Shown here piece after piece: positions 1,913 to 64,000 of a stretch of DNA of 64,000 bases (within the stretch, counting starts at the first letter, position 1; every line of letters begins with the position of its first letter). The position numbers and the translations under genes are program-made. This stretch comes from Bispira polyomma (lineage: Eukaryota): assembly GCA_965649765.1 (NCBI GenBank), contig OZ287748.1:101370001-101434000 (forward strand), in the 5' to 3' direction. A model generated the notes under the pieces. It did not search any database and was not told the DNA's origin. It was given only the letters and a program-made list of their open reading frames with translations.

Positions 1913-2955
1913 GCTGATTTTCTATTACAGTTGGTGGTTTTGTGAGCTCCACTACAGGTTTCACACACATGCTTAAAAGAAGTGTTGCCTGTTTTATGAC
2001 TACTGGGGTACTTACAAGACCCATCTTGAAAAAATTTGCAATTAGCTGTGCCCGACTTAGTAAAGGTTTGATTTTTCCCGACGCCCTTTGCAAGTGAACC
2101 CTGAGAGCTACCACTGCCAGAGCCATGCCTCTGCACATGTACCCGCCTAAGCCGGTCAATTTTGTCGACGTCGCTCCATTTAAGTTTGTCCATTTCCATG
2201 GTTGTAAGTACAACCACATGGCAGGCTTTGGCGGCCTCCCAGGAAAAATCCTGGGAGTCCTCCATCAGTCCAGCCATGTAGTCAAGCATGATCTCTTTGG
2301 TTTCGGGGGATTTCTCATCTTGTATTATATGTGTGAATCCGCAGACCCACTGGTTCCAAGTTAAGGCATCATAACACGGTCTAGCTTTAAAATTTCCGGA
2401 GAGGACATGATTTTGAGGCCATTCAACCACGCGCTTCACTATTACATCAACACCCCCCCCCCCCCTTTGAGACTTGATCTTACCTTTAACCGGGTTCTCG
2501 TTGAGGTGTGCGAGCTCGGCTAGCCTTAACTCGACTTGGTTCTGAATGCTACTGCTCTGTTTTAAAAACTGTACACTCGGGACAACAGTGTTCTCAATAC
2601 TTGTTATTTCCTCACTCGAGCTGGCAGAATTGTTACTGGAAGCAGTAGCCGCAGCCACGTGTGTTTTAGCAACGTTTGATACTGGAGTGGTTTCCGTTAT
2701 TTCCTCACTCGAGCTGGCAGAATTGTTACTGGAAGCAGTAGCCGCAGCCACGTGTGTTTTAGCCACGTTTGATGCTAGAGTTGTTTCCGTAACTGACACT
2801 CGCTGGTCAAGTTTTTCCATCAACTGGCCCATAGCCTGAAGTTGTGCTAATATTTGTCCCGAAACCACGGCCACACTATCAACGCCAACCGGACTAGGCT
2901 CAACAGTTTCCTCATCGGATACAGTCTCTTCCTTGATTGAATCTTTGGACAACAC
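1903..2955 (-). CDS. Ngaro gag-like ORF1 (copy 1)
   Basis: GKIKSQRGG..WPQNHVL..YDALTWNQWVCGF..LMEDSQDFSWEAAKACH and a C-terminal Cys/His finger; homologous to 35611-36681. Carries a 93-bp internal tandem duplication. The N-terminal Cys motif is partly deleted. Confidence 0.85.
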   Translation of the reverse strand: MLSKDSIKEETVSDEETVEPSPVGVDSVAVVSGQILAQLQAMGQLMEKLDQRVSVTETTLASNVAKTHVAAATASSNNSASSSEEITETTPVSNVAKTHVAAATASSNNSASSSEEITSIENTVVPSVQFLKQSSSIQNQVELRLAELAHLNENPVKGKIKSQRGGGGVDVIVKRVVEWPQNHVLSGNFKARPCYDALTWNQWVCGFTHIIQDEKSPETKEIMLDYMAGLMEDSQDFSWEAAKACHVVVLTTMEMDKLKWSDVDKIDRLRRVHVQRHGSGSGSSQGSLAKGVGKNQTFTKSGTANCKFFQDGSCKYPSSHKTGNTSFKHVCETCSGAHKTTNCNRKSAKN

Positions 2956-4500: not shown

Positions 4501-4771
4501 GGAGTGAACTTGTCACATTTCTACTTTGGGGTGGTTACTAGTATTGCATTTTGTTTTTTTAATTTCTTGTTTGGGGCCCAGTATTTCCCTTTTGGGGTGT
4601 ATGTTGGGCAAATTTCTACTTGGGGGATTTATACGTTTAAAAGTAAATAATTTATTTCTTATTTATGTGTGTGTCGGGAGGGGGGGGGGGGTCATTTGTG
4701 TGTATGTGTGTTAACTTACTTGTGGGACATTATGCTTCTTGTCATAAGGCTTTTTATGGGTTTATTTAATA

Positions 4772-7470: not shown

Positions 7471-8323
7471 TATTGAAAGGTTCAAGGGTTTAATGCTGCC
7501 TTTGCCTTTTAACAGGGTCCCTCTTTAATGTGAAAAAAAAGTAAAACAAAAAAGTGCTTGTTTTTGATTTTTAAAGATATATTTAAAAAAATAAAGCAGT
7601 TAAATACAAACAATGATTGTCTTTGATTGATGGTTGTCCACACATCTGTCATTGTGTTGTACTGGTCTTGTATCAGTTTCGTGAATTAATAATGAAGCTA
7701 AATGGCTTTTTGATATAGTCTAATATTCGATATATATAATGCTGAATAATTAATTAACCGTGCCAATTCCAACTACTCATATCAAGAAGAAGCTCTCTGG
7801 TAACTAGATTAGATTTTAATGTGATGGTTTTATTTGTTTTATGTTGCAATTACCTTTTTCACATACGAGTTCATGTCACTGTTTTTCGTGAAATGGTGGT
7901 CGATGTATGCTTCCATGCAGCTGATAAAATAGGTCTCTGTATGTTACATTTCATGGGAATCATGTTTTAAAATATGCCACAAAAACACCCCCTATATCGT
8001 CCAGATTTTGCCTATTGTTTAACTCTCCTGACCGAACATAACTGCAGCTTAAACGGGAAAAAACGAAGTGAAAAAAAAAAACATGGGAAAATCGGGAAAC
8101 GTAGCTTGAAATCAATGTATGGGCCATTTTGTACACGTTCAGTACGAATCTGTACACGTTTGTACACACATTTAACACGTTTTAGTGGCCGTTTCAATTA
8201 TGTGTGACTCGTTTTCAATTATGTGTTCCACGTTTTGGAAATACATTAGCCACGTTTTAGAAATCTTGGAATAAATTCAAATACAATGCGGTAATACAAA
8301 TAATGTCCATTTTTACTTTTGCT

Positions 8324-11464: not shown

Positions 11465-14400
11465 CTGTTAAGTACATAGAAACAAAACAAAAACATAGAG
11501 GAACAAAACATGAAATTTTGTACATATTGAATACATTTTTGTGTTTTAATGGGTCAATGTATAGGTGCATGTCTTAGTTATTATAATTACAGACCTATTT
11601 TGCTAGTTTTGTTGCGTGTGTAGGGGGCAGGGGGAGCATTGATAAAACCTGTGCAGTATTAATCAAATGTGACTTTGTCTTTCAAGCTTAGTAGAAAATT
11701 ATAACCAATCCAATAATTTAGACATTCAAGTAGTATGTTAAAATCATAAGGGTAAAAATGACCACCCCATTTCGATCTAAGGCCATTTCGATATATCTGC
11801 TGATTTTTAGTAGTGCTGTATCAGTACAATGGAATTTTCTATAGACTGATGTGGGGTTTAAACATATGGTTGATGGACATATGTTCATTTATTTGGAATG
11901 CAAAAGCTTTCTCAATCAACTTCAAGGCAAAGCTAAGGTGAGATACTAGAAAGATTTTGGAAAGCAGCCTTCTTGATGGGAATAATTTCTTATGTTTGTT
12001 GTTGGAGTAAGTAGAACATTAAGAAAAAATCCCGAGAAGTAGTGCAATGTGATGAAGTTATAGTCTTTAGGACTTCATCTTTTCCGAGGATGTTAAAATT
12101 ATCCAAAGTAGAGGGTTGGTATGGTGGAGCAAGTATGTTCTGAAGATTGGATGGTGTAAAAGCCATGCCAATATTATCAATCTTTATTAGTGAAAACTGT
12201 TGCAATCAGGTAGCACTGGGTCAGTAACTTTATGAAGGATTCTATTTACAGTCTACTATAATTTCTGTATTCTATAAAGAAACTCAGGCACAAACAAGAC
12301 ACAATTTGCATTGGAAACAAACTACGATGTTAACAGCTTTATCAATGGTGTTGTGCTTCAGAAGATGCCTGGCATCAATTAGGCGTGTTAAAATCTATCA
12401 TACAAGATCATCAAGAGAAATAGTGTACCACCTTGCAGATAGAAATAACCTATGCTTGTGACCATTCATTTTAGTGTTGAAATATTGGTGAAGTGATTCT
12501 GTTCTTGTACGCTAGAGGATGATTTGCATCAAAAAGGCACATTAAAAATGCAAATACAATACAATCAAATATGCAGTAAAATTTCATTTTTTTTCAGTTA
12601 AGCAAGAGAATGGAAGACCTTAGAGTTTTATTCTTTTTTGCTAGCAATATGTCTCACTTAAATCTGTAATGTAGAATCATAGTCCATTGACATAACCACA
12701 GTCGTAAGGAAGGTAGCGCCATACCCAGCTCTACCCATAACTCAAGATTAACTCAAGATTTGAACTTAAACCTAAATAACACTTTATCTGGGCTTTCCCT
12801 ACCATACATCATAGAGGTATTAACATATCTTTGTGAGTGTATGTCCTGTTACTGCACACCTTATCCAGGTGTAAATATTCCCACTTTTTTAACCTGATGT
12901 TGAGCTTGAAATTATATTTTGACAATATGGTGGATCATAATTATAAAAATTACACCTGGGTTATGGGTGTGATAAGAGGGCATAAATTCACACAAATACA
13001 TTCATGCCTGCTGGGTGTATGGTGGGGAAGGCCCAGATTAAGTATAATTCCTGGCGTCTGCGCCTTTTAGTGGAATCTGGGTGATTATCCTTACCCATCC
13101 ATTGGAAAATGCTGAACTCCATGTGTTTTACAGAATGGTCCTTCTGTGTAAAGTGTCTTGAGACAGGAGTGGATTTGTTTGGTAAGAAGTTTTGAACACT
13201 TCTGCAGTGTTCATACATTCTTTGCCTGAATGGTCTTTTTGTTTCCCCAATATATTGGAGACCACATTTTGCACAATTAATAATGTATATAACATTATTC
13301 AATTCACATGTGATTTTGTGTCTAGGTGGGAGGTTAACACATTTGAAGACTTTATTACTATTAAAACTGGTAATGTTTTCCAGTTTGTTAATTCTTGGAC
13401 AATAGGTGCACTTACCCAGTCTTGTACAGACTGGGATATGTGTCTGTAATTGCACTGTGTCCTGCTTAGGTGGAAAAAGGATATTGCTTGAAGTGAGCTT
13501 ATCCTTTAAATTAGGTAGTTTTCTGTATCCAATCAGTGGTTTTGAATTGAAGATTTGAGTCAATTCTTGGGTATTCTGGATGGTATTCCAGTTACCATTT
13601 ATAAGTTGGTTGATTTGGGGGTTGAAGGGGTTGACCTGGGTGACCATGACTGGGGTGTCCACTGGTGTCTTAGTGAGCACTGTGTCTAACAAATCATTCT
13701 GTGAAAATTTGCTGCCCTTTTTGTAATGTTTTTTGAGGTAATTGAGTGGATATCCTCTTTTTAGGTAATACCCTGTTAACTTGTAGGCATTGTCCTTAAA
13801 GTCGCTGTCTAGTGTACAGATTCTCCTAAGGCGCAAATACTGACCATATGGTCCCTTTTCAAGGACACTTTTAGGGTGGGCTGAGGTAAACTCCAGATAC
13901 AAATGTGTATCAGTGGGTTTGTTATAGAGAGTTGTGATGAGTTCTCTATTAGCTCCAAATTTGACCGTTGTGTCTAAGAAGTTAATGTGGTCATGGCTAT
14001 ATTCTTGTGTGAATTTAATGGTTTGGTGTAGTGAATTGAGATACTCAAAGAATTGAATGAGCGTTTGTTCACCATGTGTCCAGATCATAAAGATATCATC
14101 AATAAATCTTTTCCATACTAAGGGTTTTAATGAGTAACCATTTAGTGTCTTTGTCTCAAATCTGTCCATAAACATGTTTGAATAGTTGGGTGCTAAAGCT
14201 GTGCCCATAGCTGTCCCTGCTATCTGTAGGAAGTGGTCACCATTGAACTCAAAATTCATACTATGTAAAACCAATTTGAGGAGATCCAGTATGAATTTGG
14301 CTATGGGTGTTTTGGTTGTGTCCTTCCTTAGTTGTTCTGCTACAGCTAGTATTCCTTCCTGATTAGGAATATTGGTATACAGTGATGATACATCAAGAGT

Positions 14401-17400
14401 ACATAGGATTGCTCCTTGTGGGATAGGGCCCAAGTCTTTTATCTTTTTGATAAAGTCCTGAGTGTCTCTGATGTATGATTTAGTGGCTGGTACATATTTT
14501 TTGATATGTTCATCAACCAATTTACTAATTCTACTAGTAGGGTGGTTAACAGAACTACAGATTGGTCTACCAGGAACTCCTTTTTTATGTATTTTTGGGA
14601 GTAAGTAGAATCTACTTTCTGTGCAATTATCTGGGCTCAAGTGTTCTAAATTTTTGGCTGATATGAGGCCTTTTTGTCTCATCTGAATCAGGGTGTCTTT
14701 GACCTTTTGGCTAATGTCATTCGTGGTGTCATGGTCAAGTTGGGTGTAGAAGTTAGTATCACCTAATTGTCTATAACCCTCTCTGAGATAGTCAGTTGTG
14801 TTCATTACTACAACTGCTGAGCCTTTGTCCGCCTTTTTAATAACATATTTGGGTTATTACTAAGTTCTCTAAGGCCAGTCATTTGACCTTTAGTTAGGTT
14901 GGGGTTCTTTCTGCCTTTGATTTTACTTTTCAGTAATCCCAATTTAAAAGCTCTGTGGAAAACCTCTAGTGACTGATGTGTTCTAGGTGGTTTCCAACTA
15001 CTTTTATCTATGAATTTTTTGTGAATTTCCTTGTAGGGGTTTTCAGCTTCATCAAGGTTATTAGCCAAGAAGTCCACTAAGTCCATTTCACTTTGGTCTA
15101 AGTTACTGAGGAGGTCGTTATCTTGATAGAAATGGTATTTGAGGCAAAGTCTTCTGTGGAAGTCTTTGAAATCCAACCAAATTTGTGACTTATTAGGTTG
15201 GCCTGGGGTTGGGCAGAAGGTTAAACCTTTTTGTAATGCAGAGACTTGGTCACCACTCAGGGTCACATCTGATAGGTTTATAACAGTGTGTCCAATGAGG
15301 GTGTCCATAGTTTTGTCTTTGGGAAGAATCCCTGGAGGAGCAATTTTGGCTTCCTCCTTAATTCTAGTAAGGATGTCTTGATAGTTATTCCTTTCCATCA
15401 TTGACAATGTGGATATGGAATTGGATACTGAGGTCCAAAAGGGGCTACCGGTTGGCTCCCCTTTGTTGTCAAGGTGAGTATAATAACAATATACAAATTT
15501 AAATAAATTGTATTTTATTTATATACAAATCTTACATTAGAGTTGTATGTGTGATAAGGCAAAATAAATTTATTTATTTTTAATTAGTTTGCTGAGTCCA
15601 TTCAATAGGGACTGAATTTGTCTATCATTATTTTGGACATTTTTGCCCCTTTTCTGGTAGGGTGCAGGTTGTCTCCTGGGTTTCTTTGTTGGTGGGCCAG
15701 GGCGCCTTTCTGGTTTTCTCTGCTTGAGTACTTTGGTGGAGGCAGCTGTTTTGTACCTCTCATTCAGGGTGTCCTTGACTTCTTTGAATTGGGTGGGGTC
15801 AAGGATTGTCTCTAGTTGTGCCAGGACTGTTTGGATCTCGGATTTGGTTTCACAATATTTTCTGTTTAAGTCCTCAGAAAGTTGGTGTGTCAATTCTCTT
15901 CTGCATCGATTGACACACTCAACCCACTTTGTTTTGAAGACTTCATCAGTTGACACAGGTGGTGTGCATCTGAAAGCTGTCTGTGCAGGAAACTTTCCAA
16001 TCTTAAGGTTGTCCTTGATGAAGTGTATGTTAGTGGCAATACTTAACTTCTTTCTGTAAAAGTTTTTCCCTTTCAGATACAGAGGTTTTGCTTCAGGTGG
16101 GTACTTCTCTCTACTGAGGCTGGTTCGCTCAGATGAGGGTGACTCCATTGTCTTCCTCTTTTTATTTTTTGGTTTCTGGTTAGGTTCATTAAGTTTTTTT
16201 GAAACTTCTTCCAGCAGAGATATGGTCTCACTGCTCAGTTTGGTGACTGGAATTGGGGTGTCAGTAGCTGGAGTATTGAAAGCTGTGTGACTGTCCACTT
16301 CTAGGTGGTTGATAGCAGTGCTAAGGGCAGTATCACTCTCACTCATTTTGACCCAGTAAAATTAAGAAAGATATGATGTGTGTGAGAGAGAGGTGTATTT
16401 GTCTTCTCAGGGATATTGTTGGAGAAGACAAATACACCTCTCTCTCACACACATCATAGCTTTCTTAATATGGTGGATCACTATGAAATATTACACTGAC
16501 CTGCTCTTTAGTGTCCTCTTTATCCAGGTCATCATAAGGCACACCACACCAGTACTTCTCCTGCTGGTCCTCACTACAACACCAGCCAAACCTCTCCGCA
16601 AGGTTGATCACAGTCATAGGGTCTAAATCTTTAGGGTCCTGTCTACCTGTTTGGATGCATTTGAATTTAAATTTGCTTGTTAGAGGTATGGCAGTTACTG
16701 GTGATGGTTATGTGTACAGGTACTGTGTACAGTCCATAAAAGGGTCTCTTCAGGATTTTGTCTACATAGTTGTAGGGAACACATAACATCAGGAGCTAGA
16801 TTCACAAAATGTGTTAAATCTAAGACTAACATTGTGCTTATACCAGGCTTTAACTTTTGTCTTAGCTAAGGTTTGTCATAATTTTACCCTTTATAAAAAG
16901 ATTACTGGGCCTGTCATGTTTGATGTGTTTAGTCTGACAAGGACAAATATATAACTGTTTGAGGTTTAATGAAATAAGAGGCAAAAAAAAAACAATAATA
17001 ATCTCACAAAAATATGGTTATCAGTTATGAACTATAGACAAAATATAAGAAAGACTATACTGATACAGATCAAGACAAGTGTAGTCCTAAAGTGGTGATA
17101 TGGATGTGGATCAGGATACTGATGTGTTAGTACATTAACATTAGCATCAGCATATATTTTCATTTAAAAAGTATACATGAGGCCATTCTGAAAAACCAGG
17201 AGACGTCTCTAGTATGTATTTTAGTGACTTCTCTAACAATTTATCCAGAATTTCCTTTACTTGACAGCAATACTTGCAAAAACTTGCATAAAAGTTGAGT
17301 TCAAAACCTATTTCAAGCATATTTAAGAATTATACTCAATCTGTTTTTAGAAATACACAAATGAAACAATACAATTAACATGTGCAATACAATTAAAATG

Positions 17401-35379: not shown

Positions 35380-35382
35380 CTG

Positions 35383-35535
35383 TGTAAGCGAACGCCCTCA
35401 GCGTTCGTGGCCTCAGTTCTGGGGTACCAGCCTGTTCTACTATTATGGGATGGTGTACGACTATATAAGGCTCTCCTTTTTCAAATTCTCCCGCCTTTAT
35501 CGTTTCGTCAGCAGAGCAACAACTAGTTTAAAATT
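35383..35535 (+). repeat. Ngaro repeat A1 (TATA-like ctatataag at 35461)
   Basis: Identical by eye to 40582-40734. Confidence 0.95.
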
Positions 35536-35610
35536 TGTTTGGGTGACATTTTGTTTATGGTGTTTACGGTTTTATAATTTATAATATTTTAGTTGAAACA
35601 CCATCTAGTC

Positions 35611-36681
35611 ATGCCTGTCTTTGATTGTAGCCAATGTTTAACCAAACATGAGCGTCCTGTCGGGCGAAATTGCGTTAATGAGAAAATTGTTGACTCTGTC
35701 TCTGGGGAGGAGATCGATGCTGCCTCAGACACTGAACCTGCAAACGGTGAGTCCGGCGATGCAGTTACCAATGCTATACTACTTCAACTGCACTCGATGA
35801 ACGAATTAATGGTGAAAATGGACCAGCGGGTTCAGAGGAATGAGGCAGCATTGGCGACGAACCTTACCAGTAGTCAGGCAAGTCATCAGGTCCCCGTTCA
35901 GGCAAGTAGTAGTTTGATTAGTTCTAGTGTTGTCAGGCCTGCTAGTTGCTCTGCTGACGTAGGTAAGAGCCCATCTATCGCTACGTCCGACAGTATAATT
36001 CCTGGCATAGATTTTTTAAACCAGAATGCCCTAATACAGCTCCAAGTGGAGCAGAGATTGAAAGATCTCAAAACGTTGAATGAGACCACCGCGCAAGGTA
36101 AACTGAAGTCCCAGCGTAGTGGGGCGAATGAGGTATTGGTAAAGAAGGTCACCGCCTGGCCTCAAAATTATGTGCTGACGGGTAGTTCTAAGTCTCGGCC
36201 AAGCTACGATGAGTTAACCGTGTTGCAATGGGTGTGTGGTTTCGCTCGGATCGCCCAAGAGGAGAAGTCGATCAAAGTGAAGAATGCCATGCTGGATTAC
36301 ATGGGGGGTCTTATGGAGGATGCCCAGGATTTTTCTTGGGAGTCAGCTAAGGCCTGCCATGCAGTCGTATTGACAAGTATGGAGATGGATAAGTTAGGTT
36401 GGCTAGAGGTAGATAAGATGGATTGAATCCGAAGAGCCCATGCTCAGCGCCATGTGTCGAACAGTAGAAATTCCTCTGGGGGGAATGGACGGCTAGGTAA
36501 CTCTAGTAGCAGTAAATCTGGCAGTCGTAAAGGTGCAATGTTTTGTCGCTTTTATCAGGAAGGAAATTGTAGATTTCCCAGCTCTCACAATACTGGAGGT
36601 CAGTTATATAAACATCGTTGTGAGACATGTGAGGGTAGCCACAAGACTAGTGAATGTCATAAGAAAGGGGCAAAAAACTAA
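35611..36681 (+). CDS. Ngaro gag-like ORF1 (premature TGA at 36424)
   Basis: MPVFDCSQCLTKHERPVGRNC N-terminal finger and C-terminal Cys/His finger. The stop replaces the Arg present in copy 1 (CGA>TGA). Confidence 0.88.
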
Positions 36682-36707
36682 GAGGCCACTGCGTTGATGC
36701 AGTGGCT
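36672..36707 (+). promoter_or_regulatory. Putative -1 programmed ribosomal frameshift signal
   Basis: gcA AAA AAC TAA, short spacer, gccactgc-gttgat-gcagtggc hairpin. The -1 frame is continuous with ORF 36702-38366. Confidence 0.72.
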
Positions 36708-39099
36708 AAAAGGGGTGAGCAAAAAAGTAGGTTTGTCTATAATATTAAATTTAAGGATATACAATTATTTGAGAGGTCTGTGTGTCAGAAAATGTGTAAA
36801 TATGTGAAGGGCACCAGACCAGGCTTGAGCTATAGCCAGGCGTTGCAAGAGACTGGCCCAGTTCAAAAGTATGGGTGTGTAAATAGAAGTGTTGATAATG
36901 TACAGGTAAAACAGGCAAGGTTTGACAAGAGTAAGGTGACGATAGTACATAACAAAAGTGACACCTTGGTGAGGCCCCTTGGTACCTCTGTGAGCCAATT
37001 GACACCCATTGTGAAGCCTGACACGTGTGCGAAACAAGACAAGGGGATAACAAAGGAGGTCAATTGTTCGAGATTGAATAGGGGCGAAGAGAGGCGGGTC
37101 AATGGGGGTGTGGCTGTCCTCCCTCTTGCTAACAGGTATACAGCTCTAATGTTGCTGCCGGTCGATGACAGTGAAAATGTTGACGAGCCCGTTCGATTCC
37201 TTTCTGTTACTAGTGACAAGCCCGTTAACCGAGGCAAGGCGAGGAGTAAAACTGCTTCCGAAGACCGCCCGGGAAGTTCCGAATGTTCCGATATATACGC
37301 TCGTGCTTTGAAACAGAAAGGAAATAAGAAAGGCATGTTAGCTAAGGCTGCCTCAAATCCTACTTACAGAAAATGGCAAGCTCAAAGTCAATATGCATAT
37401 GGATTCACTCCTCTCTCTGCTCTGGGCTGTGAGATTGCAGATCATGGTGGGGGAGGGCCCGAACTTTCCATATTGGAAATGCATGACTTAATTCGGGCTG
37501 ATGGGAGACACAATTATGAAGGGTTGCAAATCCCTGTTCCCTCTCAATTAAGACCAGAGAGTTGGAAAAAATACCTTAAAAATTACTGGGATTGGCAATT
37601 GCCTCTCCTCATAAAGTATGGATTCCCCCTAGACGTGGATCATTCAGTTCAACTGGAATCCAGTGAGATTAACCATAAATCGGCTGAGGAATATCCACAG
37701 CATGTAGAAGCTTATATGCAAGAAGAATGTGAGTTAGGAGCCATGTTGGGGCCATTTGACAAACCTCCCATTCCGGGCTTGCATTGTTCTCCCCTTATGA
37801 CGAGACACAAACCGAATTCAATTAACCGGAGAGTAATTGTAGACTTAAGTTGGCCTCAAGGGGGGTCGGTTAATGCGGGAGCATCTCCTTCCTCTTGCTT
37901 GGGTGTTGAATTTTTGCTGTCTTACCCATCTATTGATAATCTCACTAGTGAGGTGGTAAAATTGGGTAGAGGATGCGAGATATTCAAGGTCGACATAAGT
38001 AGGGCGTTCCGTCACGTACCCATTGACCCTGGCGACGTTGACCTCCTAGGTCTAAAGTGGAAGTCCTATTATGTGGACAGATCTCTGCCGTTCGGATATC
38101 GTAATGGTAGCACGATTTTTCAGAGAATTTCGGATGGCGTGCGTTTCATAATGCACTCTGAAAATCATAATGTCCACAACTATATCGACGATTTCTTGGA
38201 TTTCTGTTCCCAGCAAAATTCAAAAAACTTACCTGAGATTGCAAAAACTGCTACAAGAATTGGGGTTGACAGTAAGTCAGAAAAAATTGGTTCCTCCCAG
38301 CACACAGGTTGTCTGCTTGGGCATAGTGGTGGATACCATTCGTGGTACTACTTCCATCCCGGTTGAGAAGTTAAGTGAAATTAAATATAAGTGTCAGGAA
38401 TGGAAATCCAAAAAATTCTGCACTAAGAGGGAGCTCCAGTCTTTACTTGGCTTGTTATTGTATATTTCTAAATGTGTGAAGTATGCTCGTGTCTTTTTGA
38501 ATAGGATGCTGGAACTGTTAAGAGATAATTACACCAGAAAGTATATTACCATCAACCCTGAATTCAGGCGTGACTTAAATTGGTTTACTACTTTTGCAGA
38601 ACAGTTTAATGGAGTCTCTTTCTTTATGCCTAAGCCCATAACTGGTGAGATTGAATTAGATGCCTGCCTTACTGGAATGGGGGGTATTTTTGAGAAACAA
38701 GTGTACCAAATTAACATTCCTCCAGAAATGAGTGAGGTCAATATTGCTTCTTTGGAGATGCTTAACATCCTGGTAGCTTTAAAATTGTGGGTTCATAAAT
38801 GGAAAGGTCGTAGAATATTGGCCAGATGTGATAATCAGGCAGTTGTAAGTGTCTTACAGACAGGGCGCACCAGAGATCCGGACTTAGCCACGTATTCTAG
38901 GAATATATACATGTTAGCTAGCAAGTTTAATATTGATATTGTTGTCATACATATTTTGGGTAAAGAAAATAAAATTGCAGATCTGCTGTCAAGATGGACT
39001 GAAACTGAAGCCAACCATTTGTTGTTATTTAGGTTAGCTGGGCCTGTCCAGTGGCTGCCTGCTTGCCACAGTTTATTAAAAGTTAACTCACTTATATAG
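36702..39099 (+). CDS. Ngaro pol: RT + RNase H (frameshift near 38200)
   Basis: KVDISRAFRHVP, LPFGYRNG, YIDDFL, ELQSLLG.L, LDACLTGMGG, IASLEMLN, CDNQAVV, HILGKENKIADLLSR. Confidence 0.92.
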
Positions 39100-39133
39100 C
39101 ACGTGTTAGTCATGTTTTCCAGATATACAACCT

Positions 39134-40109
39134 GTGGCCATCTCCTTGATGCAGAAAGCTTGTGACAGACTTGAACTTGCCTTCACCCCTGCCACTAACA
39201 GAGCCTACAACAGAATGTTCAGGCTGTTCTTGGCGTTTGGAGCCTTTATGTCATGGCCTCTTAAAAAGGTGACTGTGTTATATCTCATAGCATATTTAGA
39301 GTTTTTAACGTTTAATGGTGTGTCGGCGAGTCAAGTTCTTAATCATCTTTCTGCCATTAAGGCAAAGTGTGTCCTCTTCCATATATCTGTAGACGCTTTT
39401 TCTGATAAAAGAATCACCTATTATAATAGAGCTTTGGCAATGCATAGACCATTGCAAGTAAAACTTAAGTCAATTTTCGACGTCCAGTTGTTGAGGTCTC
39501 TTATTATAAAGTGTGACAGCACTTACATGGGTCAAATTTTTAAAGCAGTTTATCTCACCAGTTTCTTTTCCTTTCTGAGGCTGTCTAACCTCTGTGCTCA
39601 TTCGGTTGCTGCTTACTCTCCTCTTAAGCAGCTTGCAAGGGCTGATGTCCTTTTCAAGCCAGGGTATGCTGTCCTCATTGTTAAATGGTCTAAAACCCTT
39701 CAGAACAATAATGCCGTTCGTTTGCTCACCATACCAGCTTTAACCAATTCCATTTTATGTCCGGTTCAAGCTTTAAAAAACATACTGTCTATTTCTCCCA
39801 AAGGGGAAAGATTTGCCCTTGTTTCGATTTAAGCAGAATGCCATTTCGACTCCCCTCACTGATACTAGGGTTCGCAGGCATCTTAAGAATGTCTTACTAA
39901 TGCTGGGCCCGCAGTACTCTGGCTTGACCTTTCACGCCTTCAGGCGTTCAGGTGCCACGTTTGCCTTTAACAATAATGTCACCATTCAGGACATCCAAAG
40001 GCAAGGCACCTGGACGTCCGATTGCGTCTGGCGTTACATTTCGGATTCTGCCAATGCTGGTACTCAAGTTGCCGATTCCTTCAAAACTATTCTACAAGAT
40101 ACGCACTAG
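39134..40109 (+). CDS. Tyrosine recombinase (frameshift near 39808)
   Basis: Catalytic R (FLRLSNL), K (KWSKT), CPV, HxxR (FHAFRRSGAT), GTW..D..WRY. Confidence 0.92.
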
Positions 40110-40120
40110 AATTTTTGGGT

Positions 40121-40734
40121 TTGGTGGCATGACTGTAACATCTAGTCAGTTTAACATTGCAAGTAGCATATTAATTACCTGTAAACTAAATGAATTAACT
40201 GTGGGCATAAGGTCCCCCGGTATTATTAAAGTACATATTGTACTCATGTAATTAAAGTTGCACTTAAACCCTAAGTCAAACTTTAATTTGTTAATCTTCA
40301 AAGTCATATTTAAGTTTCAACTTAAATCAAATTTTCTAAATTCAACTTCTTTATTAGTTAGGGTTACTTAAACTCATTCTGGTTTAACCTAAAGTCCTAA
40401 ACTCAGTTGAGTTAAGGGGACCTTATGCTCACACAAAGTGTATATCATGTCAAAGAACTGTACATAAATATCTTAGTAATAGTAGCTGTAAATATGAAAT
40501 AAAATATATTTAACCGCAGTATTGTCTTTCTATGACTGGTTCGGTTAATTGAGTTTCCTCAGGCACTACTCCGAGGAAGTGTGTAAGCGAACGCCCTCAG
40601 CGTTCGTGGCCTCAGTTCTGGGGTACCAGCCTGTTCTACTATTATGGGATGGTGTACGACTATATAAGGCTCTCCTTTTTCAAATTCTCCCGCCTTTATC
40701 GTTTCGTCAGCAGAGCAACAACTAGTTTAAAATT
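40121..40734 (+). repeat. Ngaro B1-A2 internal junction
   Basis: ...ccgaggaa-gtg-tgtaagcg... Confidence 0.95.
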
Positions 40735-41473
40735 CCCACCCTCCACTTACCCCTTTTAGTTGGAATGTTGCTACTATTGGTACGGATATATTAGTATGGA
40801 TGTCTTAACAAATGTTGCATATATTGTTGTTAAATGCTACTGTGGTTAGCTATGTATTTTCAGACAAATGGGAGTCAGAATAACTTTGTCAAATGCCTCA
40901 CTGCCTTGTTGGAGTCCACCACTGGGACCTGCCGTTTGTATGTGACATCAAGGGATTGTGTCATCAGAGTGTAGAACAGTCTGGCAGACTAGTGTCTGGG
41001 CCGGTGTAATATGTCAGTGGTGGACTCTGCGTAAAATATTATAATTTACATTATCTACATTTTACTTAAAAGTTTACCTTCTTTTATACAAGTTTACATT
41101 ACATGTGTCAATTCATTGGATAAGGGGTCGTATTATTCGATCACGTAAGGGCGTTGCGGTTTGAGCTAGATGTAATGTAGCATAAAATGGGCTAAACGTA
41201 TATATAAGTTTCTTTTAGTAATCATAATGTGGTACTTACCTGGGGCTTTATACATTATTGTTTATAAAGTTATTGGGCAGGATGAAGTTTACATTGGTTT
41301 TAAATTCCTCAATCATAGTGCATGAACTATTTTATAACATTTTACATCTTTTACAAATTATTGATTGTAACTTTTGTTATTAATATTTTAAATATCAGTC
41401 GCAACTGAGTTGCTACTGGGGTTCTGATGTACTATGGTTGCGGTTCTGTGATATGCATGATAGAGTATGCGGG

Positions 41474-41931
41474 TTGGTGGCATGACTGTAACATCTAGTC
41501 AGTTTAACATTGCAAGTAGCATATTAATTACCTGTAAACTAAATGAATTAACTGTGGGCATAAGGTCCCCCGGTATTATTAAAGTACATATTGTACTCAT
41601 GTAATTAAAGTTGCACTTAAACCCTAAGTCAAACTTTAATTTGTTAATCTTCAAAGTCATATTTAAGTTTCAACTTAAATCAAATTTTCTAAATTCAACT
41701 TCTTTATTAGTTAGGGTTACTTAAACTCATTCTGGTTTAACCTAAAGTCCTAAACTCAGTTGAGTTAAGGGGACCTTATGCTCACACAAAGTGTATATCA
41801 TGTCAAAGAACTGTACATAAATATCTTAATAATAGTAGCTGTAAATATGAAATAAAATATATTTAACCGCAGTATTGTCTTTCTATGACTGGTTCGGTTA
41901 ATTGAGTTTCCTCAGGCACTACTCCGAGGAA
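41474..41931 (+). repeat. Ngaro repeat B2
   Basis: Near-identical to 40121-40578. Confidence 0.95.
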
Positions 41932-44790
41932 CTGCTGTATAGTATTCTTAATGTCTATGTACATCCCTGGCCAAAAGATCCGATCCCTAGCTTTTCTGGT
42001 ACATGCCTCTAACCAGAGATGACTACTGTGTACTTTCTCATGTTGTGGGGAATTACGACCTTTTGCCCTTTGTGTAGAATAACATTTTGCACACCAATTT
42101 CCTCTCTAAACGTCCAGTATTCCTGAATGTTTTCTGGAAGCCGGGTCTTTCCTAAAGGCCATCCATCCAGCACTATTTCCTTTAGGGTCTGAATGGAGTC
42201 ATCTTGTTGTGTTTCTGTCTGGACTCTGTTTAAGGTTGCTTCTGTAAAGTAACTGTGTTCTGTTGGCCTCATTTCTTTAAGACTTGTATAAAATACAACA
42301 TAGTGCTGGTCCTTAGTTTCACCCTGATTGCTCAGCAGTTTAATTCGTGACAGAAGGTCTGCAATATACATTGAAGCTCCCGCCTTGTGACATACTTGTA
42401 ACTGGTATTTCGGCAACCTTAGTAGCATTCTTTGGAGTCGTTTTGGAGCACGAAGGATGTTTTTCTTTAAGACAATTTCTAATAGCTTGTGATCTGATTC
42501 CACCTTAACATTGTCTCGGCACAAGAGATACTGATGGATTTTGTCACAGGCGAAACATAAAGCAAGGCATTATTTTTCTATGACTGCATAGTTTTGTTCT
42601 GTTGGAGTTAGTGCCCTTGCTGTAAATGATATTGGCTGTCCCTGCTGCAATAATGTTGCACTGAGACCTTTGTCTGAGGTGTCACATTATATGGTCACTG
42701 GTAAACTTGCACCATAGTATCTGAGTATTGGTTGCATTGTGACAAGACGTTTGCATTCCTGGAAAGCCTTTTCCTGCTGATTTTTCCAATACCATCTCGC
42801 CTCCCTTTTTGTCAGACGTCTCAATGGTTCACACATATCTGATAGGTGAGGTAGGAACTTTGCTAGCTAGTTTATAAATCCAGTGAATCTCTGCACCTCT
42901 TTAACGCAAGTTGGTCTCGGCATGTCCACAATGGCCGTAACATTTTCCGGGTCTGCTTTCACGCCGTCTGAAGACAAAATGTGACCTACATACTTCACCT
43001 CATTCAGCCTAAGTTTTGCCTTTTTTCTGTTTAGTTTGAGATTTATTTTGCAACATTTTTCTCAAAGTTGCCTTAGGTTTTGGTCATGAGTTTCTGTTTC
43101 CCTTATTGTGTCCCCAGACCCACACACAAGGATGTCATCTGCAATAATTTTGATGCCTTCTAGACCTTCCAGAGCTTCCTATTGGCGCTTCATGTATTCT
43201 TGAGGTGCTACATTAATACCAAATGACATTCTCAGTCATCTATATCAGCCAAATGGCGTCCAAAAGGTAGTTAGGTAGCTACTCTCTTCATCCAATTCAA
43301 TTTGATGAAATCCATCTTTGGCATCTATTACTGAGAACACTTTGGCTTTTGCTAAGCTTGGCATGATTTCTTCAATTGTGGGCAAGGGATATTGGTTTCT
43401 TTTGAGAGCTTTATTTAAGTCTTTTGAACAAATACAGATTCGCAGTTTTCCTGGTTTCTGTACTGCCACCATTGAGGAAATCCATTCTGTGGGAGTGTTC
43501 ACTCGTTGAGGTATTCCAGATATTTCCATAGTCATAATCTTTGCCCTAAGTTCTTCTTTTGTTGCTATGGGCACCTTTTGTGGGGTGTGCTGTACAGGTT
43601 GAACGGTTTTGTCCACTTCCAAATGTAGTTTGTCAGGAAGGCTCCCCAGGCCTTCAAATACATCCTTATATTCATCCAGTAATTGTTCTATGTCAGCTGC
43701 TTCTTTGTTGAAGTTTACATTTGCTTGACTACTCTGTCCATATTTTGGCTTATCCTTAGCTTCGTTCTGCTTTGTATTGTGTATTGTTATTAGTCCTAGC
43801 TTCTGACATGTCTTTGCACTCAAAAGTGGCCGTCTGTGACTCTATTTGTCACTATCTCAAACCTTAATTTCTGTGTCTGTTTTCCATGACTTGCATACAT
43901 ACTAAATACTCCTAGGGGTTTCATGTATGATCCATCATAGAAGTTCAATTTGATATTGCTCTGTCGGAGCTGTGCATTGGGTACTAACTTGTTGAGATCC
44001 TCTATTGACATAATGTTACAAGTAGTTCCTGTATCCATCAAGCACACCACAGACTCTGGTTTACCACCTTTATTTTTAGTAAACATCAGTTCAATCATTG
44101 GCTGTTTACCCCCAGACTTTACATTTGCCAATGTGTGTTCAAAAGAAAAGCATGCGTTGTCAGTTGAGTATTCCTCTTTTACATACTGTGTCACATTTGG
44201 TGCACATTTTGGAAAACATTTTCTTTTCTTGCATTTTCTGCTTCCGGCCCAGTGGTTCATCTGGTGACAGGTTCTGCATTCTGTGCTGTATGCTGGACAA
44301 TTATCTGCCCAAAATCATGAACTTGTAGACAAAAGATAGTTTATTTTGTTGGTTTTGATCTACTTTTCTTCAGCTTTTCTTTCTTGGTAAACTGCACTGA
44401 TTCTTCTGTATGTTCTTGTTCTATTTGGTGTATCTAATGACCTGCGATCTCACGTTCTCGTAGTTGGTCAACAGCGCCATGAATGTCCACAGCCTTCTCC
44501 CTGAACATTCGGGCTCTGGCTGCTTTAACTCGTGCCCCTAACACAATCCTATCCCTCAATAGGCAGTCCTTTAGAGCACCAAAGTTGCATGAACTTGTGG
44601 GTTGTCTAAGTTTGGTGACCTACTGATCAACTGTTTCATATGGCCCTTGGCCGCAGTTGTAAAACATATACCTTTCATAAATTTCATTGTGCTTCGGCTT
44701 GAAATAGTTTTCTAATTCTTTCAAGCACTTTGTTGGATCTTTTTGGTCCTCATTAGATATTTCCAGATTTTGGAATGCTCTTAAGCATAA
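41932..44790 (-). mobile_element. Decayed Gypsy LTR retrotransposon gag-protease-RT-RNase H
   Basis: gag (YERYMFY..LRDRIVLG), protease (MDTGTTCNIM), RT (DAKDGFHQIELDEESSYLTTFWTPFG, IADDILV), RNase H (ESDHKLLE..APKRLQRMLLRL); many stops. Confidence 0.9.
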
Positions 44791-50265: not shown

Positions 50266-52612
50266 GGGGATCCGTTCCCAGGTGGACATCTTATGATTTC
50301 CCATAGATTGCTCCCAGGTCGTGGTGGAGATTCCACAGACTTCCAAAAGTACTTGCTATGCCTTGGCATAGTTGGACATTTTACTACCTCTTTGATGTAT
50401 TTATGAGCTATAGCATCATGAGGTATCTTTGACAAACAATCTTTCTGATAGTGTTGCGAACTACCCTGAAATAATATTGCAGGCTGCCGTCACCAATATG
50501 TTCCTGCAGAAGTTCTGGCAATAGTTTCTCATACTGTCCATAATCAGCCAAATAACCAAAACCAAAGACCTAGTCAAAAAGGCCCTTCTTTTTCTTCTGT
50601 AGTGCATGTCTCCCTCGTTCCTTCACTGAAACTAAAATATCCATCAAAATACAGTTTGCCTTCTGTGCCTCTGAATATCCGTGTTGACAATGTGGAAATA
50701 CTATTGTCAACAAGCTTTTAATAGTGAATCTGTCATCAGTAAATTACTGTCTCAAATATGATGCCCCAATAATGCATGTGGCACTCCCCTTACTTGATAG
50801 TTGCAGGGTTGATACCACATTGTCGTAGAATGTTTGCCAGAAATTGTCAATTATCATCAGTCTGTCCTTGATAATTCACATTAATGTCTCATAGCCATGT
50901 TATTTCTGACATGCGACGACCGAAATTCACCGTGTCACCATTTATTGTATTGGTGCCCTATCCTTGTCTCAATGTGTCTCGTGAGTGTTGTCAGACTCCC
51001 TCAATGATGGCGTGGGTGAAGCCTCTTTTGGTAAATTTTTAGGCAAATAGGCACAAACAATGGAGACAACCGCAAACAAGTTAACGCAAAGCTCTCATGC
51101 ATTTTGTAGCCTATTTTGGATGATGGCTTTATAGTCAGACCAGGTAATTTTTACATTGGACTGTTTATTTTTTTATATCGATAAGCAATAACACACTCAA
51201 ACATAATATGCAGTGCCTCTCCCTGAATAACCTTATGATTGTTGATTCTATGACATTATATGATGTGGTTATGATACAATCGTAATAATTATATCTAATT
51301 TTACCACACACCAAGCTTTTGGATGTCTCGTACAGATTCATTTTTCCATAAAGTGCAACTGCAATGTATGTAAAACACAATGTACTCATGCACATATTGA
51401 AACAAAATGGCATGAAAGATATCATCAAAAATCAGTAGGAGTGCATTAGCATTTATATTGATTGTTTACAGATCATATTTAACGTAGAAACTCAAATGTA
51501 TTGCATGTTTTATACTATCTTACTTTTTACAAATGTTTTTGTGGATTTATTGACAAATATATTGCTTAACATTATGATTTCACTTTATGGATCACTAACT
51601 CTGTATAAGACATCTAAAAGCAAGGTATTTTTAAATGGAACATAACTCCTACATTTATACTATAACCACATTATATGATGCCACAGAATAGAATCACACC
51701 AGTTGAACGTTCGTTTGGGATTAACTAACGATCTAACCTAACCAATGCTTTCCATTTACCCACAGAGTTCTGTAGTTAAAGCCTCTTGGTTTATTGGTTT
51801 CATGATCATTAGTTGGCCTTTCAACGAGAAGTTAGATTTACAGTAACTGTTATTGTTTCTAAATCTGAAGATATAGGTTTCAGGATGAAAGCTAAGAAGA
51901 TGTGTTGACTTGTCTGAAATATCAAAGATTGACATGAGGGGATAATACATTAAAGTATGTTTGTAGTCATAATGACAAAATCATATTAATAAACTGACCT
52001 GTGTGGGTACATTATGGATAAAGCACTAGTCCAAGTGTAAAAGTGGGATTACTTGAAAACAGTTATAGGTACAAATATATTGATAACAGCCACCCAAACA
52101 CTCATGTAGACCAAGAATAACAAAGCTAAACTAGAATTGAAGGCAGAATCATGATTTATAATAGGTTGTGTTAGTTGTAAAAGGTAGGACCACACTTAAT
52201 CTAATATTCCGGTTTGATACGACTTTATGTGTTCCAGCAGCCCATATGGCATTGAAATTTTAGAAGATATGGAATGTGTAGATGGTAGGATTAAAATTTT
52301 AAATGTGATTACATAAAGAACAGTGGAGTCAGTCAGATGAATCTAACCAAAAATGTAACATGTTTGCCAGGTGATATAGCATCACCACTATTTAGGTTCT
52401 TTGGTCAAAAAGGTTTCACACATTTATGAATCAAGGGGAAAAACCCTAGTTGTCGAATGGACACTAAGCCTTTTTTTTTTGTTCAAATGTATGAAGATAT
52501 GGCTCAGTGAACGAGCTGTGAGGGGACCAAGGGGACCCAGTAGTTAGAAGCTTTAGCTTCATAAACACTGGCCTTGCACCAGTGTGGGTCGGAATCCTGT
52601 CTGTTCCTTTAA

Positions 52613-52920
52613 GTAGTGTTGTATTACAAGTGTAGTAGTGTTGTATTACAGGTGTACTATTGTTGTATTACAAGTGTAGTAGTGTTGCATTACAGGTGTA
52701 GTAGTGTTGTATTACAGGTGTAGTAGTGTTGTATTACAAGTGTAGTAGTGTTGTATTACAAGTATAGTAGTGTTGTATTACAGGTGTAGTAGTGTTGTAT
52801 TACAGGTGTAGTAGTGTTGTATTACAGGTGTAGTATTGTTGTATTACAAGTGTAGTAGTGTTGCATTACAGGTGCAGTAGTGTTGCATTACAGGTGTAGT
52901 TGTGTTGTATTACAGATGTA
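52613..52920. repeat. 22-bp minisatellite, ~14 copies
   Basis: (gtagtagtgttgtattacaRgt)n. Confidence 0.95.
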
Positions 52921-55612
52921 ATAAGGTTTCATTTCATGTACAGTTGTGTTTTACTACAGGTATAGTTTTTCAAGTACAGTAGTTTTTTATTACACGTCCT
53001 CTTATTCTTGTCTAGGGTATATTTTAGCATTGTCTTGTTTAGTAGTTGTTAATGTGTACTTGTTTAATAGTTTCAGAAACGGTGATGATATTGATGATGT
53101 GTATTATGTGAACGGCAATTCTTTCAATAAAAATTGTAATGTGGAGACATGATATTTTCAAACACCTAAGTTACTTGCACACAAGCCACTTCTGCTAATC
53201 ATGTAACTGAGAAATCTATAAAGTACATTAATAACACAATGGAAACTGCCACAGAAAAAAGAGCTTGTATTGGTTTCTTTGTAAAAGTGTGTACACGTCT
53301 TTCTGTGAATATAACTTTTTCCTACTTTTTTATCATTGCCCAAGTTACTCAAGTCACCACAGTATACAGTCATTTGTTGCATGACTGTATATTTTCTCAT
53401 GTAGTGCTTTTTCATTTTAATTTGTAGTAAGGTTTTTAGAAATAATTATTTGTGTTTCACACTTTTTTAAGGTTGCTCAAGTCACCACAGTATGAAATAA
53501 TTTTTCACAAGTCCCAGCAAATATCTTTTGTCGAATAATGCTTCTCCATTTTGATTTGTAGTTAGTTTTTAAAAACACAGATATATGTCGCCAGTTGGAA
53601 ATTGAGGACTAAATCTTTGCCATAAGTTTTCATTGGCTTACTGATGTTAAATATATATGTAATGGTAAAGTCGCCTTGCTTACCAAAACTGGTCTCACAT
53701 TTGAGTTTTAGTCTCAGCAATATATTTATTTGCGAATTTAGACTAATATGATTTACTTGAGTGGTTGATATGAAGCAAGAGTATGCTTGAGGCAAGAAAT
53801 TTGGTGTTTAGTTTTTGAAGAAAATATAATGCGAAGTATGGTAACAAATAATAAATGTTTCTTATAGGTAGGCATTGTAATTGTTTATAGAGATTATTGC
53901 TTGAGACTTTTGGCTAAATAATTGAGCCAGTCTTAATTTTGAGACCAAACCTGAGACTAAAGTTGGTCTCAACTGATTTGTGAATATTTCCCAATGTGAG
54001 ACTAAAACTTGATTTAGACAAAATTTAGTCACAGACTATATAATGAATGGTGCCTCCAAATATTGTGTGTTCAATTCTTATGTGTATACTAACACTAAGT
54101 GAGTATGAATTTTTGTATGGACAAAAATACCAAAGATGTTTGTAAAGCTTGCCAAGATTGTGGAAGAAACCCATGCTGAAGCACTGTAAACCACCGACCT
54201 ACAGCAGGTACCTGCCAAACTTCTCCAAATGAAGAAATGAATGGGATTCAAACCCACACTGATGAGAGGCCAGTGGTTTTGAAGCAGGCACTTCTAATCA
54301 CTAGGTCGCCACAGATCCAGATTTACATTGGCGGCCTGTAAGTTTTGCAAATAGTGGTTACTATTTCCTTCGTATATTGGTGTGCATTGATCTGGGTTTT
54401 TGTTTTTGTAGTTTAACTTAGTATTTTTGTACAAATGTAATGACTTTGTGTTCAGTTACATGTTTGAAACTGCATGTGAAGTGAATTAAATCTGGTCTCC
54501 AGTCAATACTACACTATTGGTATTGACAACACATTAATATCCAATGAGGTAATGTTTGCGACTTCTTTTTTTATAGTATTCGACTGACTGAAATGTTAAT
54601 TTCAAAGTGCAAGTTTAGAATTTAAAATCCCACCTATGGTTTCTTTAATGACAAAAGCAGAGTGGCTCTTTACATAGAAGTTATTGTCAAAGAGGCCTTG
54701 CTAGTTATGATTAGGAAATGACAACAAACGTTTACCTGGGCTTAATGATTACTTCAATGGGTCCTTGAAGGATGCCCAGTTTCAAAGGAAAACTGGTATT
54801 TTGGATTCTCAGTGAAAGTTCTACACCGTTAACTTTACTGTTGTTTATCTTAATCCTAATTACTTGTTCCCTAATGGCTCTACTCAAACAGCTAATTGCT
54901 ATTTGTTTGCTAGTTTTTGTTTCTGAATCTCTAATATCTACTTCAATGGAATCAGTCTTAGATGTATGTATCAATTTAATGTGGTTTCCCCTTTTTGTGT
55001 TACACCAATCGAAAACGTAAAAGCGTTATTTTAAATGCCCTGTGAAATGACCATTTGACCAATAAGATCAGAGGCAGTATTTATTAATCTTCAATTATAG
55101 AATACAAGGACAGTAAGACAAACAAACCCAGTGATTGTGATCCAAAACAGTCAAACATGTTGTTGAGTCCTTTGTTTGAAAACCTGGATTTAGAATATAA
55201 CATGTTTTATATAAAGTAATGCTATCTGAAAGCATCTTTTTCTTTGCTTTTGGTTCTGAATTTATAAAGCAGAGTTTAAAATAAACTCTGGGGGCTCATC
55301 TGTGAGATATACTGTATCATTGTAATGTTTTGGCTGATGCTATCAGATCTAGTCCGTTATTCTGTAGGCTTGTAAGATTAAATCATGTAAATAATAAAAT
55401 TGTTGGGCTTCACCTGGTACACTCAAGCTCAAAGCCATCAGAAATACTAGAGTATTTGTAAGTCTTAGAAGAATAATGTCTATGATATAGTAAATGAACA
55501 CTAGTTGGAATATAGAACAATTTATTGTTGCCAACTGAATTTAAAACCAAATCAACAGACCATTACTCCAATTGTTAAGTTGCAATAATATTCTAACACT
55601 CTTTGTTTCTAC

Positions 55613-62065: not shown

Positions 62066-64000
62066 TCTTTAATAAGTTATACAATATGACTTAAACAATT
62101 ATAATCTATAACTTAAAGGTCACCTTAAACCAACTTTGAGTTTAAATTGTAACTTAACTTGAGTATGAAGAATTGGTTAAAGTTTACAGTTTAAGTTTAC
62201 TGGTGCTCTTAACTAAGATTTAAGAGCTCACCTTAACAGTACTTTAAGGTTGCCCTAACCTAAGGGCAGTAAGGTTACCTTAACCTTTTTGTTTTAGGTG
62301 ACCCTAATCTGAAGGGGCCTTTATGAATTTTGAAAAGAGTTTTAGTTAAGTTGACCTAAACTTGCAACGTATACAACGTATTGTCAATCTGAGTTAGTTC
62401 TATAGAAGTTGCTAACCAGACTGGATTTTCTACTAATGAATTCAATTCTTGGACATTATTTCATGAATTTTTCCATCGTGACAACAGGTCAGCGATTCTG
62501 TTGTCTTTACCCATTACGTGTATGTATTAGACATCAATATCTGCTGTGGCTGCCATATACCAAATGTTTCGAGCACACGCTGATAGATATGGGTCTCTTG
62601 CCCTACCAGATTTCAATACACTCACGACTGCTTGGTTATCACATTTGATGAGGACCTTAGTACCTTTCCAGTAATTTTTATATAACTTTAAGGCTACCAC
62701 TATGTTGATCATTTCAAGGTGAACAATTCCAAGACTTTCGAAATTTAGTGAAATAGGGAGGTGGTAAACCAGATGTCTCCATCTACCACCTAGACCATGC
62801 AGGCAAGCATCTAGCTCAAGTGTTTGATCAATGACCTTATGTCCATACATGGACACCCCATTGTACAAAGGTAGAAACCGGTCAAACCATCTGAGGTCGC
62901 GTTTGAAATCTTCTGTAATCATTAATCTATTTAGGTTTGCAATGCCCCTAAGCAGTTCCAACATTCGATTTAAGAAAAACCTTGCCGGCTTTACACACTT
63001 ATGGATATAAAGTAGCTGACCCAGTAATGATTGTAACTGTCTTTTGGTGCAATGGGTTTTGTTTTGCCACTGGCCTACTGTGGTTCTAATATGTTTTAAT
63101 TTTTCGTCCGGTATGGAAACCGTGCCCTGAACTGTGTCAATGAGTATACCCAGACACACCGCTTTTGTGGATGGAGCCACTAATTTTTTCTGACTTATAG
63201 TAAGTCCTAATTTCTCCATTGTGTCATACAAATATTCAAACAACCTTTTTTGCTGACGTGGGCATACCGTACCCTAAAAAATAGTCGATGTAGTTAATGA
63301 CGCTGTGTCCACGTTGACGCATGACGTAATGCACTGCTTCACTGACACGTTGAAAAAACTTGCTTCTGTGCCTACTGCCAAACGGGAGGCATGTATCTAT
63401 ATATGTACCTTTCCAATTTAATCTTAACAGGTCATAATCCATAGGATCTATTTTTAAGTGTCGAAATGCACGGCTCACGTCCAACTTGTAAATATGGGCA
63501 CCTTTACCTAACTTGGTTAATTCCTTTATTAAGTCGTCAATAGTAGAAAAGCTAAGATTGAAATCACCGCCTAAATAGCTGTCTTTCTCCACTTCTACAT
63601 TTACTGAATTACCTTTTGGCCAACTCAAGTCTATAATGACATGCCTATTGTCTGAATTTGGTTTGTTTCTGGTCATAAATGGGGAGTGGTGACCATTCTC
63701 AATAGGATTTTTTATGAATGGGCCTATTATGGCCCCGTGCCGCTTTTCTTCCTCTAAATAGACCTCCACATCTTTGGGGTATTCAATGGCAGATTTGTGA
63801 TTGTCAACATCACACCTGAGTTGACACTTTCTGTTAAAGCCTAAAGGGAGCCCGAACTCAATTAATTCAAGTAACTGTTGGTCCCAGTAATCACTTAACA
63901 TGGACTTCCATTGTTTTGTGTTTAATTGTGACACTACTGGAATACGAGACCCCATAAAATTAGGCTTACCCCTTTTCTTTACCTCGTGGTGTAATTGAAT
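62066..64000 (-). mobile_element. DIRS/Ngaro copy 3 (RT + RNase H, YR missing; runs off the window end)
   Basis: 63236-63955 RT (KLDVSRAFRHL, LPFG) and 62527-63243 RNase H (LDACLHGLGG, CDNQAVV) followed directly by an AT-rich B-like tract. Confidence 0.88.

Follow-up and report, generated by a model that had tools for sequence, protein, structure and literature searches.

Ngaro-like elements are tyrosine-recombinase (YR) retrotransposons that are defined, in excerpted text of PMC9210276, PMC4157794 and PMC8547959, by the order A1-ORFs-B1-A2-B2 of their split direct repeats, by gag followed by reverse transcriptase/RNase H (RT/RH) and then YR, and by having no methyltransferase; they belong to the order DIRS. 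How YR retrotransposons express their recombinase and deliver it to the cDNA is unsettled, and the sole published proposal met, by way of PMC13003380, is a frameshift: Poulter and Butler 2015, as quoted there, place the Ngaro YR in the -1 frame relative to the end of Pol, which it overlaps, and take frameshifting as the probable way to reach it. In addition, a passage of PMC8547959 on the Ngaros of Cafeteria suggests from deletions in ORF1 that ORF1 may steer integration.

The window analysed here is the whole stretch of 64,000 nucleotides of Bispira polyomma DNA, and its positions 35381-41939 hold a broken copy of a Ngaro-like YR retrotransposon. We consider it likely, with a probability of roughly 0.8, that the element splices a phase-1 donor in gag to a phase-1 acceptor before YR, which would give a fusion of Gag residues 1-162 with the recombinase. 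This route had been proposed in a sequence-only reading of the window and is supported by the comparison of families, in which the glycine codon at the donor is invariant, the acceptor and its phase are kept, and the ATG of YR is not conserved. The element type itself is already known; the proposed spliced route of Gag-YR expression would be the new part.

The element and its relatives

The layout of the element is as follows.

35381..35535, plus strand: split direct repeat A1 (5' end), 155 nt, identical to A2
35463-35467, plus strand: TATAA-like box inside A1, read from the sequence
35611..36681, plus strand: Gag-like ORF of 356 codons, with a premature stop in the window copy; an intact sister copy was modelled
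36663..39099, plus strand: Pol, reverse transcriptase and RNase H, with a frame break and no methyltransferase tail
40118..40585, plus strand: split direct repeat B1
40580..40734, plus strand: split direct repeat A2, 155 nt, identical to A1
41471..41939, plus strand: split direct repeat B2, 736 nt beyond A2

The Ngaro-like call rests on structural criteria, namely the repeats, the domain order, the YR and the absence of a methyltransferase. The split direct repeats at 35381-41939 stand in the order A1...B1 A2 B2, which was found again in five of eight longer stretches, the other three yielding no such repeats. In published Ngaro schemes B1, A2 and B2 are drawn adjacent, whereas A2 and B2 are 736 nt apart here; this spacer (40735-41470) is common to 4/4 sister copies and measures about 275 nt in one clade-II copy. 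Pol of a sister copy matches the RT family PF00078 (E 2.5e-11) and the RNase H family PF13456 (E 7.5e-5) and gives no Pfam match to a methyltransferase, the domain that separates DIRS-like and PAT-like elements from Ngaro-like ones; Pol stops about 35 residues past ADLLSRW. The tyrosine recombinase sits downstream of RT/RNase H and has the H-x-x-R motif, and its Pfam matches are weak (E 0.02-0.04). The N-terminal region of Pol ahead of the RT core (36663-37350, about 230 residues) varies widely between families in both length and sequence.

The window copy is broken three times, by a stop in Gag at 36424-36426, in Pol near 38200 and in YR near 39800. With these breaks this copy cannot itself make the full recombinase, and the argument for splicing concerns the family and not the insertion at 35381-41939.

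Relatives were collected from the host genome (1.04 Gb), in which each query gave 2924-7967 candidates, 150 of which were scored each time. From the scored lists 120 stretches were picked to span the diversity, and they are not a random sample; they split into clades I and II, between which Gag identity is 25-39%, and at 80% single linkage they form 14 families in clade I and 10 in clade II. A first scan of metagenome contigs gave no matches and a later profile scan gave 28 loci, 18 of them with a readable YR start (YR identity 23-33%), which make about 11-12 lineages by our own grouping and, judging from their divergence, seem to come from other hosts. Splice sites were scored with generic weights, not ones trained on the host Bispira polyomma.

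Elsewhere in the window, another retroelement lies on the minus strand at 12988-16361. Its three frames overlap, and the last one resembles an RT with a GIY-YIG-type endonuclease, Penelope-like by its motifs. At 62374-64000 on the minus strand, running into the neighbouring stretch L189, lies a third copy, which belongs to clade II and has RT/RH and, past the window end, a phase-1 donor; no YR match was found downstream of it. A 22-nt tandem array occupies 52546-53029, with related copies near 57550.

The putative donor in gag

On the donor side the following features matter, where a slash marks the cut.

35611..36097, plus strand: predicted coding part of exon 1, with C-x2-C-x3-H-x7-C, a long helix 49-87, a disordered linker and helices 133-161
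36095..36103, plus strand: phase-1 splice donor AAG/GTAAAC, cut 36097/36098, marked by cross-family conservation
2478..2486, minus strand: homologous donor AAG/GTAAGA in copy 1, a different family
35744..35752, plus strand: family-specific phase-1 donor ACG/GTGAGT, cut 35746/7, a possible competitor that would keep 45 Gag residues
35960..35968, plus strand: family-specific phase-1 donor TAG/GTAAGA, cut 35962/3, a possible competitor that would keep 117 Gag residues

The proposed donor is in phase 1 as had been claimed, the Gag ATG being at 35611 and 35611-36097 measuring 487 nt, that is 162 codons and one base, and copy 1 does carry its AAG/GTAAGA at the homologous codon, with 2484 as the last exon base on the minus strand. 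Moreover, the bias to GGT for which a check at the donor glycine had been proposed proves to be complete at the family level, for the codon does not vary: in clade I it is GGT in 14/14 families, preceded by A in 13 and followed by A in 13, against GGT in 156/450 cases over 39 control Gly columns of the same clade, none of them invariant. On a tree of 89 copies (88 GGT, 1 GAT) the third base of this codon undergoes 0 changes, and 37 control Gly columns on the same tree undergo 1-14, with a mean of 9.3. Two single copies, L060 and L130, are without the donor G as judged by eye. Exact matches over the whole genome amount to 304 + 11 with GGT vs 2 with GGA, GGC or GGG, counts which are not independent because the copies are related.

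Clade II serves as a natural control, in which the donor appears to have shifted and the old glycine to have been released. Here an AG/GTA stands six codons ahead of KIKS, still in phase 1, in 17/18 copies with a Gag match (one copy is misaligned, and two copies have no Gag match), and the Gly beside KIKS varies freely, being GGT, GGC, GGA or GGG or replaced altogether. The tree of clade II alone is weaker, with 1 third-base change vs a control mean of 4.4. When the 45 codons before the WP motif were scanned blindly, the best GT was in phase 1 in 28/30 lineages, against a background of 67/187 Pol windows; in 6 of those 28 the GT chosen differs from the proposed donor site. In each of the six distinct metagenome Gags that were readable, the last N-terminal helix is followed by a GT in phase 1. 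The families were also searched for a conserved donor ahead of the Gag ATG, and none was found.

It could be that the acceptor is real and mainly takes another donor as its partner, such as 35746, 35962 or the phase-0 GC motif at 35877, while the GT at 36098 mainly binds U1, blocking early polyadenylation or tuning splicing. In fact the 36097 donor of the window family is weak (A at +5) and two upstream phase-1 sites score higher; a second U1-like motif is conserved upstream in 10/14 clade-I and 10/10 clade-II families, and a passage of PMC5580714 reports that anti-termination in EVD, a Copia element, depends on U1. However, 36097 is the only donor common to all 15 clade-I Gag families, which speaks against an alternative donor, and 35746 and 35962 are absent from other families; a site that only binds U1 would have no reason to hold phase 1 after a move of six codons, and the GC/TT motif is in phase 0, from which YR would be out of frame. 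We regard another main partner as unlikely and 36097 as probably the main donor in the window family, where 35746 and 35962 may yield shorter in-frame fusion forms.

The upstream U1-like motif is itself in phase 0 and is found at 35875-35883 and 35899-35907, at a distance of 170-220 nt from the donor; the linker around it is hypervariable. It reads AG/GCnRGT in the 10/14 clade-I families and is an invariant AAG/TTAAGT in 10/10 clade-II families, and it may serve as a GC donor, as a decoy for U1 or as a site bound by a protein.

The putative acceptor and the start of the recombinase

The 3' side of the predicted intron comprises the following features.

36098..39122, plus strand: predicted intron of 3025 nt, with the rest of gag and all of pol, drawn from its conserved ends
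36672..36707, plus strand: predicted -1 frameshift signal into Pol, made up of the slippery site A AAA AAC, the stop of Gag and a hairpin of 9 bp (z -3.3)
39107..39122, plus strand: non-coding spacer that holds a T-rich tract and the conserved acceptor in phase 1 (AG 39121-39122)
39123..40109, plus strand: predicted exon 2, a Cre-fold tyrosine recombinase, first helix from codon 3, frame break near 39800
39936..40024, plus strand: conserved RNA stem within the YR coding sequence, RRSGA codons pairing with GTWT codons (z -6.0)

The acceptor tgttttccAG stands where the sequence-only reading had put it, its AG at 39121-39122 being followed by AT and then by ATA at 39125 in the YR frame (39110-39832), and the predicted 36097>39123 join is in frame as claimed, G+AT giving Asp. 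The caution that such a phase agreement has a one-in-three chance by luck is right for a single donor-acceptor pair but does not carry over to the families, across which the match goes far beyond chance. Both the acceptor and its phase are kept when families are compared: YAG in phase 1 is found in 11/11 readable clade-I families (3 are unreadable) and in 9/10 clade-II families, and the spacer varies between families in length and base sequence with the phase kept. The acceptor of copy 1, some 635 nt beyond the window, is likewise in phase 1 and is followed by no ATG in the first 20 codons. A blind acceptor scan gave a phase-1 AG in 8/11 clade-I and 9/10 clade-II families; it chose another AG in 5/11 clade-I families, 3 of these not in phase 1, and in the window family it favours an AG within RNase H with a stop behind it (TTTAG 39028-39032). 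Among the readable metagenome loci the best-scoring AG is in phase 1 in 16/18 (YR identity 23-33%), and the two exceptions share the site of their sisters and carry a shift downstream of it. The predicted intron thus has the ends of a U2-type spliceosomal intron, a GT donor and a YAG acceptor with a pyrimidine tract, kept in position and phase. As a possible branch point, clade II has a conserved GATACTAT-like motif some 15-22 nt ahead of the AG, and clade I has no fixed motif.

The arrangement of the frames also bears on the published assumption for Ngaro elements, quoted in PMC13003380, that YR is reached from the end of Pol by a frameshift, to which readthrough may be added. Such a route finds some likeness in the metagenome, where one locus has a 7-nt Pol-YR overlap and another an abutting in-frame stop. 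However, while YR overlaps the end of Pol in the described Ngaro elements, no such -1 overlap is found in the window element, whose Pol and YR frames do not overlap and whose Pol stop is followed, at 39107-39109, by a stop in the YR frame, and YR here is seemingly a spliced exon rather than a frameshift product. Moreover, in unbroken copies the Pol-YR spacer is 22-72 nt long with a frame relation of 0, +1 or +2 by family, and 12/14 metagenome loci have a YR frame that does not open until Pol has stopped. For this lineage a Pol-to-YR frameshift or readthrough thus appears already largely refuted by the frames, and we hold it to be extremely improbable. For Gag-Pol, by contrast with Pol-YR, the frameshift that had been proposed is supported by its predicted signal (A AAA AAC, stop and hairpin), kept in most of the clade-I families listed; a conserved acceptor for Pol was sought across families and none was found, positions and phases being scattered.

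The start codon of YR is another matter on which the families speak. YR might be made as a free protein of some 320 aa that starts at an ATG of its own, be it through reinitiation, internal entry or a subgenomic promoter, with the splice motifs otherwise used or with this route running beside splicing. The ATG at 39149, which had been raised as a caveat to the fusion, is present at codon 9, and 8/10 clade-II families have an in-frame ATG shortly ahead of the acceptor, at 4-9 codons from the YR start, while several clade-I families have one close to the start; the YR frame alone is also modelled to fold as a complete Cre-like enzyme. The caveat is nevertheless weakened, since this ATG lacks conservation and falls within the first helix that is predicted. 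The first in-frame ATG wanders by family among codons -27, 1, 4, 7, 9, 11 and 16, and there is none before codon 31 in five lineages (L080, L082-84, L110/113, L111 and L119), in which a start from codon 31 on would cost helix 3-17 and half of helix 22-42, so that the absence of a YR start codon is directly shown in several lineages; 11/18 metagenome loci have none before codon 30. Codons 1-8 of YR, ahead of the window ATG, overlap the predicted helix 3-17 and are under coding constraint (Leu8 in 14/14, Pro3 in 11/14), and codons 1-30 are stop-free, with stops further upstream in 9/14. Because the clade-II ATG lies in or beside a motif conserved at the DNA level, with the register shifted in two families, it may belong to the splice signal. 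Translation from an own ATG would moreover leave the invariant YAG and the donor unexplained, and altogether it is very unlikely.

The model of YR has a pLDDT of 88, and its match to Cre spans the whole length (E 6e-9 in Foldseek, with a TM of about 0.64); a YR profile gave 0 matches among PDB sequences. The RNA stem is predicted in all 22 family representatives that were folded and is possibly a replication or packaging signal. It also constrains one control Gly column, which is nearly invariant, and synonymous constraint therefore need not mean splicing. As silent-site conservation has other causes, it is the matched phase at both intron ends that points to splicing.

The expression model and known systems

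In the favoured reading, the unspliced RNA would give Gag and, through the predicted -1 frameshift, Gag-Pol, and the splice would provide the start codon that is missing from the YR of many families. The fusion product would have about 490 aa (162 + 1 + 327), with Gag 1-162 joined to the Cre-fold recombinase; the donor lies directly after the predicted Gag helix 140-161 and the acceptor directly before the predicted YR helix 3-17. It would keep the Zn-finger-like motif and helices 49-87 and 133-161, and be without the C-terminal helical domain of Gag and its C-terminal Cys/His cluster. A fold search with Gag returned generic helix matches only (best Z 5.2), every match against the Atlas is under 0.9, and Gag has no Pfam family. 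Our tentative suggestion, held at slightly less than even odds, is that the retained Gag part co-assembles with Gag and so delivers the recombinase to the cDNA; the sequence-only reading had given such a putative recruiting role to the Gag Zn finger/coiled coil.

Copying of the spliced RNA back into the genome probably does not occur. In clade I, an exact genome search with junction motif 1 gave one match, which is an unspliced decayed copy, beside 304 unspliced matches, and junction motif 2 gave zero; by-eye comparison of match lists with retrieval of unpaired matches revealed no processed copies either. The absence of retrocopies among at least 304 copies is a real but mild negative, which fits an intronic packaging signal and also fits no splicing. 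Three copies (L054, L063 and L066) form a non-autonomous family in which the C-terminal end of Gag and almost the whole of Pol are missing and the junction is common to the copies; the donor and acceptor region are kept, the AG being intact in 2/3. Their Gag-to-RH deletion, as well as L047, was considered as a processed copy and rejected, not being a GT-AG join.

In three read runs that resemble DNA assemblies and are silent on expression, no 36097>39123 joint was found among 15 of the 26 joints listed, and a narrower search of these runs gave 1 joint, unrelated. Gag-YR fusion proteins were found neither among the best 120 of 335 YR matches, nor among 150 of 5018 representatives, nor among 112 Gag matches, and a search for longer proteins gave 1 match, with RT plus YR; these fusion searches are weak, as the protein matches with a listed source are all ENA gene calls on contigs.

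A broader statement, for which we see about equal odds of being right or wrong, is that a widespread Ngaro-like lineage makes its integrating enzyme only as a spliced Gag-YR protein, with Gag, Gag-Pol and GagN-YR sharing an N-terminal assembly module, which would overturn the frameshift model of YR, and that the cleavage-poor U1-like motif 170-220 nt upstream tunes the ratio of spliced to unspliced RNA. If the splice is true, what is annotated as the YR ORF in this lineage is a second exon, and the real protein is about 160 residues longer, which could alter attempts at expressing these eukaryotic Cre-like enzymes. The splice would also offer ORF1 a route to steer integration, and the element would have to balance spliced against full-length RNA in a retrovirus-like manner.

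The predicted YR has the same whole-length Cre-like fold as Cre and lambda Int and would differ from both by a Gag-derived N-terminal part spliced onto it. Lambda Int has an extra arm-binding domain, to which the predicted Gag addition is loosely alike, with no homology shown. Spliceosomal introns are reportedly mentioned for some elements by Goodwin and Poulter in 2004. No report of a spliced Gag-YR fusion was found in the literature covered; Goodwin and Poulter 2004 and Poulter and Butler 2015 are outside this coverage, and a prior mention there is possible.

By its arrangement, the nearest analogue is P50 of murine leukemia virus (MLV). According to passages of PMC10496198, the MLV SD' RNA joins a donor in gag to a downstream acceptor and puts the Gag N-terminus in frame with integrase, and the same plan is proposed here. 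P50 holds only the last 116 residues of integrase and is an accessory protein, whereas here the whole recombinase would be included as the predicted sole integrating enzyme; moreover the P50 RNA is packaged and retro-copied, in contrast to the element here, for which no retrocopy was found. In the plant Ty1/Copia element EVD, as a part of PMC5580714 describes it, host splicing sets the ratio of proteins as is proposed here; in EVD, however, splicing makes Gag alone, whereas here it would make the integrating enzyme.
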